Of a DNA stretch of 64,000 nucleotides, positions 686 to 41,048 are shown piece by piece. Source of the DNA: Candidatus Methylomirabilota bacterium (lineage in GTDB: Bacteria; Methylomirabilota; Methylomirabilia; Rokubacteriales; DASRDR01); NCBI GenBank assembly GCA_036005065.1, contig DASYQW010000033.1, forward strand, positions 21,989 through 85,988. The letters are read 5' to 3'. The notes under the pieces are model-generated. The model did no database searches. It had not been told where the DNA came from and worked only from the letters and a program-made list of their open reading frames with translations. A program made the position numbers and the translations under genes. The stretch's first letter is position 1, and each line of letters opens with the position of its first letter.

Positions 686-762
686 GGGAGGGGGCCTCCA
701 CGGCCCCCTCCCAGGCCCACCCCCAGGAGGGGTGGCGGCGGCGGAGCCGCCGCTCGGAGCGG
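686..762 (+). repeat. Copy 3 of a structured intergenic repeat family (11-bp perfect hairpin gggagggggcc/ggccccctccc, then ...ggcggcggcggagccgccgctcggagcgg)
   Basis: Same architecture and shared 3' module (gccgccgctcggagcgg) as the copies at 30907 and 34751. It lies between the SBP stop and the ATPase start on the opposite-strand operon. Confidence 0.6.
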
Positions 763-3940: not shown

Positions 3941-5853
3941 TTGGTTCCCCACACGGCGGGGATCATCCACTCCAGGCCGAGGGCCCGCAGCGTCTCCGGC
4001 TTGGGGCGCCCCGTCGGCCGGTCGTACCCCATCCCCTCGTACCAGACGTCCAGCATGTGCTCCCAGTGCTTCTCGACCGTCTGCCCTTTGGCCGGGCCGT
4101 CGACCGGCACCGACCCGTAGCGCTTGGAGGGGAACTCCTTGTCGGGGCCGATCCCGCAGCGCAGGTTGAAGGCGCGGAACATGGCGCCGATCCGGCGGCC
4201 GAATCGGACGGCGTCGTCCCGGGTGACCTCCCACCCGGTGGCCGCCGACAGCGCCCGGCAGAGGTTCTCGAAGGTGGTCCGCGTCGTGAAGATGCACGCC
4301 CCCAGCGAGTCCTCGAAGTGCCGCCGCCCGTTGAGTCCGGCGGTCTGCCGGGCGACCTGCTCGGGGTCGAAGGGATTGATCCGCGCCGGCAGGCCCAGCT
4401 CGGTGGGGAAGACCGGCGGCCCCGTCTCCAGCGTGCCGGTCGACCCGGTGCAGGTGTCGAGCAGCTCGTCCCAGCGCGCCCGGTGGTCGTGGCCGCGCGG
4501 CGAGGCGTTCTTCCCGGTATAGATCGCGCACTCGGCGGCCGGGCCGCCCAGGCGCTCGGCGGCGATCTTCGTTCCCTCGGCCAGGAGATCGCCGAGCCCC
4601 TGGCGGCGGCTCAGGAGGTCGAGAAGGCGATTGGCTCCCTCGGCATCCCCCCAGGTGAGGGGGAAGCCGAGCTGCGCCTCGGTGATGTAGCCCTTTTCCA
4701 TGCACTCCATCACCCAGCCGCAGAGCCACCCGAACTCGTTGACGTCGACGCAGGCGCGGTCGATCCGGGTGTTGAGCCAGGAGACGGCGACGGGGTCGGT
4801 GAGGCCGATCGTCCACCCTGCGCCCGACCAGCCCTCGTACTCCGGCTCGTCCACGATCTGCCCGGCGTACTTCCCCCTCGGCAGCACCTGCATGTGGCAG
4901 TGGTGCATGCCGCAGGCGCTGCACTGGTGTCCGCGGTGATCGAAGCCCTGGCGGAGGGCCGGCGCCTCCCACGTCTTCATGTCGACATCCGACGGGGCCA
5001 CGCTGGTCGTGTAGTTCTTGATCGGCAGCGCCCCGATGCCATGGAGGTTCACCACCCCCGGCAGCGTTCCGTACTCGTAGAGCGTCCGGGCCGCCGGATT
5101 CGTCTTGAGGTCGTGGGCGATCTCGTCGGCGGCCGCGATGACCCCGCGCGGATCGGCGGCCCGGAGGGCGTGGGTGCCGCGGACGATGGCCACGGCCTTG
5201 AGGCGCTTCTGTCCCATCACCGCGCCGCAGCCGTTCTTGGAGGCGACGTGGCCGTAGTCGCCCTGGATCGCCGCGAAGCGGACGAGATTCTCCCCCGCCG
5301 GGCCGATCGAGTAGACACTCAGCATGTGCCCGGCGAGCCCGATCTCCGCGCTCAGGGCGTCCTGGGTCTCCCAGGTGTCCTTGCCGAGGAGATGCGCGGC
5401 GTCCCGCACCTCGACCTGGTCGTCGTGGATCAGGAGGTAGACCCACCGCGGGGCCTGCCCCTGCAGGACGATCGCGTCGTACCCCGAGAACTTCAGGTTC
5501 GCCCCGAAGAAGCCGTTGGCCTGGGTGGACGTCGCGCCGTTCGTCATGGCGCCCCGGGTGATGACCGTCAGACCGCCGGTGCCCCAGACCGGGAGGCCCG
5601 CGAAGGGGCCGGTCGCGAGGACGAGGCGGTTCTCCGGGTGGTCCCATCCGACCTCGGGCGGCACTTCCTCCCAGAGGATCTTGGCGCCGAGGCCGGCGCC
5701 GCCGAGATAGTCGTGCATCTCCTGAGGCGTCCAGGGCTGGCTCCACGCCCGTCCCGCGCCGAGGTCGACCCGGAGGAGCCGGCCCGCATAGCCCCCGGGG
5801 AGCCCGGCTTTCGCCGCGGTCGTTTCCTTCGAGCCGGTCGCTGCCTGCGCCAT
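3937..5853 (-). CDS. Aldehyde:ferredoxin oxidoreductase family protein (tungsten/molybdopterin AOR, AorB-like)
   Basis: 638-aa product with the AOR N-terminal signature ...GGYAGRLLRVDLGAGRAWSQPWTPQEMHDYLGGAGLGAKILWEE. A GAGGAG RBS precedes the start. Confidence 0.9.
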   Translation of the reverse strand: MAQAATGSKETTAAKAGLPGGYAGRLLRVDLGAGRAWSQPWTPQEMHDYLGGAGLGAKILWEEVPPEVGWDHPENRLVLATGPFAGLPVWGTGGLTVITRGAMTNGATSTQANGFFGANLKFSGYDAIVLQGQAPRWVYLLIHDDQVEVRDAAHLLGKDTWETQDALSAEIGLAGHMLSVYSIGPAGENLVRFAAIQGDYGHVASKNGCGAVMGQKRLKAVAIVRGTHALRAADPRGVIAAADEIAHDLKTNPAARTLYEYGTLPGVVNLHGIGALPIKNYTTSVAPSDVDMKTWEAPALRQGFDHRGHQCSACGMHHCHMQVLPRGKYAGQIVDEPEYEGWSGAGWTIGLTDPVAVSWLNTRIDRACVDVNEFGWLCGWVMECMEKGYITEAQLGFPLTWGDAEGANRLLDLLSRRQGLGDLLAEGTKIAAERLGGPAAECAIYTGKNASPRGHDHRARWDELLDTCTGSTGTLETGPPVFPTELGLPARINPFDPEQVARQTAGLNGRRHFEDSLGACIFTTRTTFENLCRALSAATGWEVTRDDAVRFGRRIGAMFRAFNLRCGIGPDKEFPSKRYGSVPVDGPAKGQTVEKHWEHMLDVWYEGMGYDRPTGRPKPETLRALGLEWMIPAVWGTK

Positions 5854-10056: not shown

Positions 10057-11235
10057 TCACCCACGGCGGTCTCGAGCGAGGTCGACCCGCCGGCCCTCCT
10101 GGGCGGACACGTAGGCGGCATAGATGACCTCCACGGTCTCCCGTGCCAGGAGCGCGCCCGAGAGCGGCTCCCGGCCCTCACGGAGGGCGTCGACGAAGTC
10201 CGCCATCTCCTGCGGGTAGCCGCGTGTCCAGTCCTCGTCGGGGCTCGGAAACTGCCAGCCGGCTTTGGTCTCCACCTTCTCGGTGAGGTACTCGTCCCCC
10301 CAGACCGCGCCCTCGGGCGCGTAGATCTGGAGCGTCGTGTTCGGATTGATGTTCACCTGGACGACCCCGTTGGTGAAGTAGGCGGTGACCAGGTTCTTCA
10401 CGCCGCCGAGGCTCACGTCGGTCGCCATGACCGTCGCCTTGGTCCCGTCCTCGAACGTGAGGATGGCCGCCGACCAGTCCTCGACGTCCTCCCAGCTCGT
10501 CACCAGCCACTGCGGGGACGTCGCCCGGACGGCCGGGACCTCCGTGAGCCGGCCGACCTCCCCGATGACCGACGCCACCCGGATCGGCGCTCCACGCCTC
10601 TGCCGCCCCTCGTAGTGCTTCAAGTGGATCACCGCCCCGATCGGGTGGGAGCCCATCCGGAGGAGCGAGCCGCCCCCGGCCGTCGCCCAGCGGCGGGAGT
10701 AGTCGGCGTGGGAACCGGAGTGGCTCTCCTCGGCGCGCAGATCGAGCAGCGTCCCGCCGGCCCGGTCCATGAGACGCCGGAGCTTGGCCATGGCCGGCGC
10801 GTAGACGAAGTTCTCCGCGTAGCAGAGGGTGACGCCGTTCTCCCGGCAGGCGTCGAGGATGGCGTCGGCGTTCTGCCGGGCCGCGTCGAGCATGGCCTGC
10901 CGGGACAGGGCCTCGGCCTCCACGAAGCAGCCGGTCAGCGGCTTCTCGACGATGACGTGCTTGCCGGCCCGGGCGGCGTCGATGGCGAAGAGGTGGTGGT
11001 GACTGGTGACCACCGGCAAGGTGACGACGTCGATGTCCGGCCGGTCGAGGAGGGCGCGATGATCCGTGTACGCGTGCGGGATGCCGAACTTCCGGGCGAA
11101 CGCCTCCGCGCGCTCCCGCGACCGCGAGTAGACGGCCCGGAGCTCGCACTTGACCCCGCGCGATGCGCCGAGCGCGTGGGCGTGGAGGTCGGCCGCGAAC
11201 CCGGCTCCGATGAAACCGATGCCGAGCGTCTCCAC
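10057..11235 (-). CDS. Gfo/Idh/MocA family NAD(P)-dependent oxidoreductase (paralog A)
   Basis: Rossmann GIGFIGAGF, HVIVEKPLTG, C-terminal GGVKNLVTAY ... NPNTTLQIYAP. The GTG start follows a GGAG RBS. Only the C-terminal ~392 codons of the 10057..12063 ORF are used. Confidence 0.75.
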   Translation of the reverse strand: METLGIGFIGAGFAADLHAHALGASRGVKCELRAVYSRSRERAEAFARKFGIPHAYTDHRALLDRPDIDVVTLPVVTSHHHLFAIDAARAGKHVIVEKPLTGCFVEAEALSRQAMLDAARQNADAILDACRENGVTLCYAENFVYAPAMAKLRRLMDRAGGTLLDLRAEESHSGSHADYSRRWATAGGGSLLRMGSHPIGAVIHLKHYEGRQRRGAPIRVASVIGEVGRLTEVPAVRATSPQWLVTSWEDVEDWSAAILTFEDGTKATVMATDVSLGGVKNLVTAYFTNGVVQVNINPNTTLQIYAPEGAVWGDEYLTEKVETKAGWQFPSPDEDWTRGYPQEMADFVDALREGREPLSGALLARETVEVIYAAYVSAQEGRRVDLARDRRG

Positions 11236-23026: not shown

Positions 23027-23115
23027 AGCGTCGGAGGGGGCCTCGACGGCCCCCTCCGAAGAGGGCGCCGCGCCATCAGGCCGCCCGGTGGGATACACTT
23101 CCACCGGGCGGCTTG

Positions 23116-30900: not shown

Positions 30901-30906
30901 GTTAGA

Positions 30907-30984
30907 TCGGAGGGGGTGTCGGAACACCCCCTCCGAGACCTCCCCCAAGAATCGTTGCGGCGGCAAAGCCGCCGCTCGGAGCGG
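30907..30984 (+). repeat. Copy 1 of the structured intergenic repeat. Structure: 12-bp perfect hairpin tcggagggggtg-tcggaa-caccccctccga, then cctccccc, then gcggcggcaaagccgccgc and ccgctcggagcgg hairpins
   Basis: The first 30 nt are identical and ~85% identical overall to copy 2 at 34751. It lies immediately after the stop of the tandem-YciI gene. Confidence 0.8.
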
Positions 30985-31055
30985 CACATCCGGTGGCGCG
31001 TGGTCACGTATGAGCGCGAGAGCGATGCCCCGCGCATTCTTTCCCGGACGCTGAG

Positions 31056-31943: not shown

Positions 31944-32043
31944 GCAGGCTCGCCGTGGGGTAGGAGCCTATCGGATTCACCGCGCGCAGCGTGAAATCGC
32001 TACGCGTATGGCGGTCCGCTCCGAGCAGCGGCTTTGCGATAAT

Positions 32044-34743: not shown

Positions 34744-34750
34744 GTTCAGG

Positions 34751-34828
34751 TCGGAGGGGGTGTCGGAACACCCCCTCCGAAGCCTCCCCCGAGGATCGTG
34801 GCGGCGGCAAAGCCACCGCTCGGAGCGG
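34751..34828 (+). repeat. Copy 2 of the structured intergenic repeat
   Basis: It sits between the convergent cupin (+) and cyclase (-) genes. It produces the spurious MSEHPLRSLP ORF seen also at copy 1. Confidence 0.8.
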
Positions 34829-34840
34829 ATGTCGCCCGCC

Positions 34841-39864: not shown

Positions 39865-41048
39865 GGCTTCCGTGGCAGCTCGACGCGGCGGCCGGTGGCC
39901 GCCGACAGATAGCCCGCGTAGATCACTTCGACGGTCTCGCGCGCCAGATCACCGCCGCTCACCGGCTGGCGGCGCTCGAGGATGGCGTCGACGAAGTCGG
40001 TCAGCTCCTCGGCATAGCCCCGCATCCAGTGCTCGACCGGGTTCGGGAACTGCCAGCCGGCCCGGGTCTCGACCTTCTCGGAGATGTACTCCTCGCCCCA
40101 CACGCCGGGATCGGGCGCATAGAGCTGCATCCCCGTGTTCGGGTTGATGGCGATCTGGGCGACGCCGTTCGACATGTAGGCCGTTACCAGGTTCTTCACG
40201 CCGCCGAGCGAGACGTCGGAGGCGAGGATCGTCCCTCGCGTCCCGTCCTCGAAGGTGATGAGGGCGCCGGCCCAGTCCTCGACGTCCTGCCAGCCGGTCT
40301 GAAGATAGGCGCGGCGCTCGGCCCGGACCTGCGGCAACCGCGTCAGGGCGCCGACCTCCGCGAAGACGCTCCGGGCCCGGATCGGCCGGCCTCCGCGGAG
40401 GCGGCCCTCGGCGTGCTTGAGGTGGAGGAGGGTGGCGATCGGATGGGACCCCATCCGGAGGAGAGAGCCGCCGCCCGAGGTACGCCAGCGGCGGGAGTAG
40501 GGCGCCACCGACCCCGAGTGGGCCTCCTCGGCCCGGAGGTCGAGGAACGCGCCGCCCGAGACCTCGAGGAGGCGCTTGAGCTTGGCGATGGCCGGAGCAT
40601 AGACGATGTTCTCGGCATAGCAGAGCGTCACGCCGGCCGCCCGGCACGCCTCCAGCACCGCATCGGCGTTGGCCAGCGCCCCGGCCAGCATGCGCTCGCG
40701 CGGCGTCGCCTCGATGCGCTCTCCGTCCGTCCCGAAGTACCCGGTCAGCGGCTTCTCGACGATCACGTGCTTGCCGGTGCCCGCGGCGGCGATCGCGACC
40801 ACGTGGTGGAGGTCGTTCGGGCAGCAGACGTCCACGCAGTCCACGTCGGGGCGCTCGCAGAGCGCCCGGTAGTCGTCGAGCGCCAGCGGCACCTCGTGGC
40901 GCCGGGCGAAGGCCTCGGCGCTCGCGCGCGTCGCCGCCGCCACCGCCACCACGTCGGCCTTGGATCCGCGCAGGTGGGCCATCGCCCGGATGTGGGTTTC
41001 GGCGGCGGCCCGGGCCCCGACCAGGCCGATGCGGACGCGCGGCTCCAC
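39861..41048 (-). CDS. Gfo/Idh/MocA family oxidoreductase (paralog B of the 10057..11235 gene)
   Basis: The motif strings HVIVEKPLTG, LCYAEN.VYAPA.AKL, GGGSLLRMGSHPI, GGVKNLVTAY and VWGEEY.SEKVETRAGWQFP are all shared with paralog A. Confidence 0.85.
   Translation of the reverse strand: MEPRVRIGLVGARAAAETHIRAMAHLRGSKADVVAVAAATRASAEAFARRHEVPLALDDYRALCERPDVDCVDVCCPNDLHHVVAIAAAGTGKHVIVEKPLTGYFGTDGERIEATPRERMLAGALANADAVLEACRAAGVTLCYAENIVYAPAIAKLKRLLEVSGGAFLDLRAEEAHSGSVAPYSRRWRTSGGGSLLRMGSHPIATLLHLKHAEGRLRGGRPIRARSVFAEVGALTRLPQVRAERRAYLQTGWQDVEDWAGALITFEDGTRGTILASDVSLGGVKNLVTAYMSNGVAQIAINPNTGMQLYAPDPGVWGEEYISEKVETRAGWQFPNPVEHWMRGYAEELTDFVDAILERRQPVSGGDLARETVEVIYAGYLSAATGRRVELPRKP

Follow-up and report, generated by a model that had tools for sequence, protein, structure and literature searches.

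Repetitive extragenic palindromic (REP) elements, whose 5' feature is a GTAG head, lie in the malE-malF spacer of Escherichia coli and in the hisJ-hisQ spacer of Salmonella, where they protect the upstream mRNA from 3' exonucleases and lower the expression of the downstream membrane and ATPase components. The Correia elements of Neisseria are inserted in operons or near start codons and can alter mRNA processing or translation, and transposons of the IS5-group and IS630-type use CTAG or TA as targets. Here we describe a structured repeat found in a stretch of 64,000 nucleotides (64 kb, 72% G+C; hereafter the window) on contig DASYQW010000033.1, which comes from a member of the Rokubacteria (Methylomirabilota), abundant uncultured soil bacteria with large genomes; public records label the proteins encoded in the window as Methylomirabilota. 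One copy of the repeat, at positions 680-816, occupies the spacer between the substrate-binding protein gene and the ATPase gene of an ATP-binding cassette (ABC) transporter operon. We consider it likely that this copy is a mobile small palindromic repeat, of the kind of REP elements and bacterial interspersed mosaic elements (BIMEs) or of miniature inverted-repeat transposable elements (MITEs), that is dispersed in Methylomirabilota and came to lie in this spacer, with a generic hairpin effect on the operon.

The likeness to REP elements and BIMEs concerns both form and position: the repeat consists of short, dispersed, G/C-rich extragenic palindromes that occur in many copies and in mosaics, past stop codons and between tandem or convergent genes and rarely between divergent ones, and the window copy stands, as in malE-malF and hisJ-hisQ, between a binding-protein gene and the cistron that follows it in an ABC operon. 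It differs from them in having no sequence similarity, in its longer unit (a core of 87 nt that combines two different hairpins with single-stranded linkers, the latter conserved), in its flanking (C/G)TAG direct repeats, which are like target duplications, and in its host, which belongs to an uncultured phylum. With the Correia, ERIC/IRU and RUP elements it shares a length of ~100-160 nt, a non-coding nature, short direct repeats at a T-A-containing target, presence or absence at orthologous sites, and insertion inside operons and near start codons. In contrast to these, its internal hairpins and not its ends are conserved and covarying, no related full-length insertion sequence was found in ~0.9 Mb of DNA, and its terminal inverted repeats measure 5-7 bp, compared with ~26 bp in Correia. 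The size, the non-coding nature, the flanking duplication and the presence/absence polymorphism are thus those of a MITE, while the terminal inverted repeats fall short of the ~10 bp or more that a MITE would have. With IS5-group and IS630-type transposons the repeat shares a preferred target that contains CTAG and a flanking duplication of 4 bp, possibly 2 bp; it has neither a transposase gene nor matching terminal inverted repeats and could not be assigned to a family of these transposons, and this likeness is a lead only. We place the repeat in the REP/MITE class as a new family. It offers a further example, from an uncultured soil phylum, of palindromic repeats in the spacer after an ABC binding-protein gene and reveals no new kind of regulatory mechanism; on the practical side, the family breaks short-read assemblies, could mislead start-codon calling and gives a lineage marker for soil metagenomes.

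A full-length repeat copy fills the binding-protein/ATPase spacer

The window copy is on the + strand, opposite in sense to the operon mRNA, and takes up essentially the whole binding-protein/ATPase spacer, with borders good to ~5 nt. An nhmmer profile of 17 full-length copies matched 680-812 (model positions 4-135 of 136, E = 1.8e-29), and a covariance model, R1, matched 683-770 with 80.8 bits. A first, sequence-only reading of this DNA had placed the repeat at 686-762, a span that the profile match now extends on both sides; its description of a structured repeat copy embedded in an ABC operon is borne out by that match and by a family of three 81-nt sites within the window. Hairpin 1 (686-712) is the first structured part of the copy: GGGAGGGGGCC at 686-696 pairs with GGCCCCCTCCC at 702-712 around the loop TCCAC (697-701), which confirms the perfect 11-bp G/C stem noted earlier. 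It is followed by a C-rich linker (713-735, + strand; family consensus GA.CCTCCCCCAGGA), by hairpin 3 (735-753; GCGGCGGC at 735-742, loop GGA, GCCGCCGC at 746-753), by a conserved tail, TCGGAGCGGACCACC (754-768, + strand), with TCGGAGCGGA invariant in the 17 full-length copies, and by a variable 3' part (769-816, + strand) that closes with GGTTACTCCGAC (801-812), the motif marking the 3' terminus in the family. The foot pair of hairpin 1 is G-C in the window copy and C-G in 15 of the 17 aligned full-length copies, a compensatory flip, and the sequence adjoining hairpin 1 reads AUGAGC after the stem in the mRNA sense and CAGGCC on the + strand. The linker of the window copy forms an extra 7-bp hairpin of its own (CCACCCC at 717-723 with GGGGTGG at 729-735; -13.7 kcal/mol), which is missing from most other copies and has a similar variant at L008:4690-4810.

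Parts of the repeat recur within the window. The hairpin 1 pattern (with up to 3 mismatches) has two sites, at 686 and 23032, and none in 100 dinucleotide shuffles. The second module (735-762), which had been said to match two other copies, indeed returns at 30957-30984 with 2 mismatches and at 34801-34828 with 3 mismatches, where no match is expected. A repeat search grouped 682-762, 30904-30984 and 34748-34828 as one 81-nt family, and the total for the 64 kb came to three core copies and two fragments.

The sequence-only reading had staked much on a stable fold in the mRNA orientation, and such a fold was found. Hairpin 1 alone reaches -27.6 kcal/mol in the mRNA sense; within 191 nt of surrounding sequence both arms pair with a probability of >0.99, and a 171-nt region is more stable than its shuffles on each strand (z = -2.6 for the mRNA sense, -3.7 for the + strand). 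A G-quadruplex formed from the G-runs was also considered and set aside, since the complementary C-runs make a hairpin far likelier. The structure is further reflected in the variation among copies: in an alignment of 27 copies, 97.8% of the cells pair and six pairs have changes on both sides, the observed pairing and covariation values were reached in 0 of 500 column shuffles, and slid registers left ~50% paired. In hairpin 3, two stem positions exchange CG, GC, AU and UA in 41 of the 100 metagenome copies aligned to R1. Hairpin 1 is invariant in this metagenome set because it served as the search key; inside the window it varies, with GGGGGCC/GGCCCCC in one copy and GGGGGTGT/ACACCCCC in another. 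This structural constraint could reflect either recognition by a mobilising enzyme or a host-level role.

The family is dispersed in Rokubacteria

A strict gapped pattern made from the conserved parts hit 20 loci in a species-representative genome collection, all of them in four metagenome-assembled genomes (MAGs) of Methylomirabilota/Rokubacteria; one MAG contributed 11 of the copies and another 7. In soil metagenomes, at least 120 contigs contain hairpin 1 in its exact 27-nt form, and in most of these copies the 87-nt core is the same and is followed by a 3' part that is shorter or differs. The covariance-model search that had been suggested for further copies was likewise productive within the window, where R1 recovered the three cores; 100 of the metagenome copies were also aligned to R1.

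Most of the aligned strict-pattern copies are ~146 nt long and share one layout. The 5' end consists of (C/G)TAG and 4-5 variable bases, followed by hairpin 1 in the form TCGGAGGGGGCC-TCGAC-GGCCCCCTCCGA; the middle consists of the linker, hairpin 3 as GCGGCGGC-AAA-GCCGCCGC and the invariant TCGGAGCGGA; and the 3' end is a variable stretch closing in GGTTA.TCCGAC, six bases and (C/G)TAG again. Metagenome copies have TCGAA or TCGGAGCGGAACAC where the full-length copies have TCGGAGCGGA, and the 87-nt core can accordingly be written as hairpin 1, C-rich linker, hairpin 3 and TCGAA or TCGGAGCGG, with a 3' part of variable length beyond it. Identity among copies, both within and between genomes, is 90-93% in the 5' core compared with 57-77% in the 3' part, a contrast that is due in part to ascertainment, since the copies were selected by a 5' pattern. 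The modules are found singly, in tandem and as inverted doublets (L004, L040, L046, L069, L085). At three of these loci (L046:1582-1802, L069:1466-1682, L085:543-770), two inverted cores stand tail to tail with ~45 nt between them and make a long palindrome like that of a REPIN (a paired REP unit); the three loci look orthologous and have similar flanks. The idea that the full-length element is itself an inverted core doublet of the REPIN type was rejected, as by eye the reverse complement of its 3' half shares only CTAG...TCGGA with its 5' half.

No curated RNA family accounts for the repeat. A search of the whole window against Rfam at gathering threshold gave no match, and in E-value mode the window copy and a canonical copy gave only sub-threshold hairpin matches, the best at 18-24 bits against gathering cut-offs of 37-58; the candidates whalefall-1 (18.4 bits, cut-off 37) and Scr6106 (23.7 bits, cut-off 52.5) were among these and were not accepted. 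A literature search returned nothing linking Rokubacteria to intergenic repeats of this sort, and the hairpin arm was not found there as a bacterial repeat. The family thus appears to be undescribed so far and widespread in soil Rokubacteria.

Gene contexts and flanking sequences of the copies

All copies that we inspected are intergenic, and the genes beside those in the window are unrelated to one another, comprising an ABC transporter, YCII-domain proteins, an EamA transporter, a sugar epimerase-like protein, a GAF-adenylate cyclase and an ECF-type sigma factor. With neighbouring genes called by a crude codon-position G+C filter, 55 copies had classifiable neighbours: 22 were tandem-sense, 21 convergent, 10 tandem-antisense and 2 divergent, the copy in the ABC operon belonging to the minority antisense class. 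For 57 of 132 copies, a gene running in the same direction as the copy has its stop codon no more than 25 nt 5' of hairpin 1. Among the first 20 loci, the TAG at the 5' end is the stop codon of the upstream gene in 8, and the CTAG at the 3' end is the stop codon of a converging gene in 3 others.

The tetranucleotide CTAG is ~33-fold under-represented in the window, with 5 sites (1248, 13628, 14634, 37455 and 42587) compared with 164 expected from base composition, and despite this rarity many copies have CTAG at both ends. TTAG (6) and CTAA (2) are also very rare in the window, and GTAG (123) and CTAC (133) are not. When pairs of flanking 4-mers were read by hand, they were identical in 17 of the 33 copies with a recognisable 3' terminus. 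Four of the identical pairs were not CTAG (GTAG/GTAG twice, CTGG/CTGG and TTAG/TTAG), compared with 0.5 under random pairing (permutation P = 0.0003; P = 0.025 without two atypical copies). These concordant flanks look like a 4-bp target-site duplication, and a palindromic target would explain why copies occur in both orientations. On the 5' side, NTAG stands 9-11 nt from GGAGGGGG in 49 of 131 oriented copies, with 4-5 variable bases between NTAG and the stem.

These features are consistent with a non-autonomous mobile element that would land at (C/G)TAG sites and duplicate them, a picture that is drawn partly from the flanks and partly by conjecture. In a genome of 72% G+C, nearly all (C/G)TAG sites are TAG stop codons, so that copies would pile up just past gene ends in either orientation.

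The same junction in orthologous operons

For a control element, the sequence-only reading had named absence from orthologous operons with unchanged expression as the finding that would tell against it, and the sequence half of this is what we observed: the element is missing from all nine distinct orthologous operons examined (L021, identical to L022 and L023; L024; L025, identical to L026; L028; L029; L030; L031, identical to L032; L153, identical to L154; and L155). The nucleotide identity of the flanking genes, measured for L028 only, is ~83-86%, and the closest orthologue, L153, has an ATPase 90% identical to that of the window and a 39-nt spacer, of which nothing is clearly retained in the window except perhaps the last few bases before the ATG at 673. 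None of the nine junctions has a single CTAG that would mark a clean empty site, and every spacer is different, so that the precise insertion event at the window locus cannot be reconstructed.

At least six different fillers occupy the binding-protein/ATPase junction among the orthologues, ranging from the 39-nt spacer to another element of ~140 nt. Seven of the spacers were folded (L153 and L155 were read and left out of the folding), and six of the seven hold a stem of ~9-21 bp whose sequence is unrelated to the element; dinucleotide-shuffle z values were -2.2 to -5.4 in five of the seven, -1.2 in L025 and +0.4 in L031, which is cut by a contig end. A palindrome, CCCTCTCCCC/GGGGAGAGGG, again unrelated to the element, fills the junction in L025 (3994-4059) and in L028 (1401-1466), where it is extended to ~21 bp (CCCCCACTGACCCTCTCCCCC/GGGGGAGAGGGTCAGTGG.GGGG). 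The junction thus looks like a hotspot of repeat turnover, at which unrelated hairpins replace one another.

The CCCTCTCCCC...GGGGAGAGGG repeat also stands beside copies of the element elsewhere, in the flanks of L015 (~4790-4823) and of L010. A third palindromic intergenic element of ~140 nt, with the sequence GTTGACGCCGG.CGCCACGGGT..GGCGCCGGGTTC.CCCCAG.GCGCGCGGG..., is common to L155:1359-1500 and L031:2488-2571 at the same junction. In most orthologues (L021, L024, L025, L029, L030 and L031) a small gene of the Cupin_7 type separates the permease gene from the binding-protein gene, and this gene is not in the window operon, in L028 or, to judge from the distances between genes, in L153 and L155. 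The same genome has also been assembled independently from short reads (L027, Logan contig SRR11742948_5768806); this contig carries an identical binding-protein gene and ends 82 nt into the element (1474-1555), as assemblies tend to do at repeats, and shows a single-base difference from the window just past the stop codon (TGATCCTGTCGG compared with TGATCCGGTCGG).

The start codon of the ATPase gene

Two in-frame ATG codons lie next to hairpin 1 on the minus strand. The upstream one (683-685) belongs to the edge of the element and would add MSEE to the protein; the stem had been described as ending one nucleotide short of its complement, and in fact it touches the 'cat' at 683-685 directly, with 0 nt between. 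The other (671-673), which opens MAEPLIQ..., lies 12 nt past hairpin 1 in the mRNA. A public record that is 100% identical (P0121, 258 aa) begins MAEPLIQ, which corresponds to ATG 673, and the closest homologues, P0122 and P0124, begin MAAPLI and MAKPLI and have the same length of 258 aa. At the nucleotide level, ...GGCGGA-ATG-GCC-GCG-CCG-CTG-ATC of L153 aligns with ...GAGGAG-ATG(673)-GCC-GAG-CCG-CTG-ATC of the window. From these comparisons the ATPase probably starts at ATG 673 and not at ATG 685, so the hairpin does not abut the likely start, as had been supposed, and ATG 685 was dropped as an element-borne start of the ATPase gene.

The GGAGG proposed earlier as a Shine-Dalgarno sequence does lie within the hairpin, at 699-695 in the mRNA, where it is made up of the loop GGA and the first two G of the 3' arm. 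Its distance is 9 nt from ATG 685 and 21 nt from ATG 673, which is too far for it to serve the latter, so that the location stood and the function probably did not.

A CAT is found at the same position in L010, L011, L013, L016, L018 and other copies, and in L099 and L100 this ATG, at the border of the element, reads in the same frame as a long open reading frame. At several loci (L045 and L118; also L063, L077, L086, L099 and L100), an antisense hairpin 1 lies 1-10 nt upstream of an apparent start codon; downstream of it, ABC ATPase-like N-termini were read in at least two of them, L045 (MSLLVTRGLTKAF) and L118 (MSALVEIRDVSKAF). In L035 (MSTLLQIQGVSKAF) the ATG is ~30 nt from hairpin 1.

Possible effect on the operon and alternative explanations

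The operon is encoded on the minus strand and comprises an ABC permease gene (2633-1830, BPD_transp_1), the NMT1-type substrate-binding protein gene (1809-817; stop codon TGA at 819-817; C-terminus ...NEFLP*, as in the orthologues) and the ABC ATPase gene, which runs past the window start and has its 3' end outside it. Judging by gene order alone, we infer that the three genes are co-transcribed, and the hairpins of the element would then sit in the polycistronic mRNA. The window copy would have arrived as a mobile repeat, in antisense orientation, in the binding-protein/ATPase spacer. Once co-transcribed, its three G/C hairpins would most likely impede 3'-to-5' decay or stop part of the transcription, through which the binding-protein message would be kept abundant and ATPase expression lowered. 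Such an influence on RNA stability and relative expression is the part of the proposed control function that remains plausible, in a generic form; the other part, dedicated translational control by sequestration of the ribosome-binding site, is mostly unsupported. Two readings fit the junction, namely that the spacer tolerates transient palindromic repeats or that a stem-loop is favoured after the binding-protein cistron, and we favour a combination of both.

Several observations weigh against a mobile repeat with this kind of effect. The window copy has no recognisable flanking direct repeat, none being left cleanly at 680-816, and cannot be derived from the L153 spacer by simple insertion. 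The terminal inverted repeats extend over just 5-7 bp (TCGGA...TCCGA) and the 4-7 nt beside the flanking repeat are variable, and short terminal inverted repeats together with variable outermost bases are unusual for a classical MITE. A pattern search for an autonomous partner (ends 0.3-4 kb apart, ~0.9 Mb of DNA) gave only chance matches in coding sequence. Tandem contexts lean to the sense orientation (22:10, P of about 0.05), and this lean, together with the well-conserved 5' core, hints at constraint beyond selfish spread. There is no U-tract terminator at the window copy, and the stability or polarity effect is argued by analogy with REP elements.

Among the alternatives, it is possible, if in our view doubtful, that a REP-associated tyrosine transposase (RAYT) moves the same family in the form of single-stranded DNA hairpins, which would make the family a true REP/REPIN system and not a cut-and-paste MITE. 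The conserved parts are hairpins with compensatory changes and not terminal inverted repeats, the (C/G)TAG 4-5 nt 5' of the hairpin 1 foot recalls the GTAG head of REPs, the modules can stand alone, in tandem or as inverted pairs (as in L046, L069 and L085), and the family is depleted between divergent genes, all of which would suit a RAYT. However, the non-CTAG flanks that agree on both sides resemble target-site duplications, which are not a product of IS200/IS605-type transposition, and the tetranucleotide is set off from the stem by variable bases; in addition, no RAYT gene turned up, although no search aimed at RAYT was made.

A neutral passenger, with no measurable effect on the operon in a spacer that tolerates palindromic insertions as they turn over, is a comparably tentative alternative. 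It would agree with the six or more different sequences at the junction in orthologues and with the position of the native start region (GAGGAG-ATG; compare GGCGGA-ATG in L153), which lies outside the hairpins. Yet most orthologous spacers contain a strong hairpin of some kind, which suggests that structure is favoured there, and a stem of -27.6 kcal/mol only 12 nt from the start codon would be unlikely to remain wholly silent.

We think it rather unlikely that the 87-nt core is a structured module maintained by the host, that is, a portable intercistronic or 3'-end RNA element recruited by Rokubacteria at operon junctions to set relative expression. The compensatory changes in both hairpins, the near-invariant linkers across species and the better conservation of the core relative to the 3' part point in this direction. 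Several starts of ABC-transporter ATPase genes, as in L045 and L118, stand 1-10 nt from an antisense hairpin 1, and a module of this kind may at times supply an in-frame start codon (ATG 685; L099, L100).

Dedicated translational control, in which the hairpin would sequester the Shine-Dalgarno sequence and start codon of the ATPase gene, is improbable. What speaks for it centres on ATG 685, which hairpin 1 touches, which has GGAGG in the loop and stem at the ideal 9-nt spacing, and which is partly paired in the ensemble (unpaired probability 0.38); in addition, the window loop reads GUGGA in the mRNA where the consensus has GUCGA, a change that improves GGAGG. Against this, the annotated and conserved start is ATG 673, which stands 12 nt past the stem and makes direct sequestration of the ATPase ribosome-binding site unlikely, and the element does not behave as a cis-regulatory RNA would: it lies beside unrelated genes in both orientations, is absent from all orthologous operons examined and matches no curated RNA family. 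Hairpin 1 may nevertheless hinder 30S docking. Finally, that the element is an independent small RNA gene or intrinsic terminator, for which stable hairpins often just past stop codons could be cited, is very improbable, as a scan of 500-2000 detected neither a promoter-like site nor a stem with a T-run behind it on either strand within 686-816, no Rfam family was matched at threshold, and the copies occur in both orientations.

Other copies and features of the window

The mobile repeat favoured here is represented in the window by further copies and fragments beside other genes. The second core copy (30905-30992, + strand; 93.9 bits with R1) carries the compensatory hairpin 1 stem variant GGGGGTGT/ACACCCCC; it begins 5 nt past the TGA of a weakly YCII-like gene and has an EamA transporter gene downstream. 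The third core copy (34749-34836, + strand; 80.7 bits with R1) lies between convergent sugar epimerase-like and GAF-adenylate cyclase genes. An isolated 3' fragment (31970-32037, minus strand) runs from the hairpin 3 loop as far as the terminus, ...GCTCCTA (positions 64-135 of the nhmmer model, E = 1e-8), and a solitary hairpin 1 module (23029-23060, + strand) stands directly past the TAG stop codon of a YCII-domain gene. After this solitary hairpin 1 comes a second, unrelated hairpin, CCGCCCGGTGG...CCACCGGGCGG (both within 23029-23112), just upstream of a gene with sigma-70 r2/r4 and DUF6596 domains that starts at 23113. Elsewhere in the window, 10103-10999 and 39901-40809, ~0.9 kb each and separated by 29.8 kb, match in one register with 71-81% identity and are probably paralogous genes.

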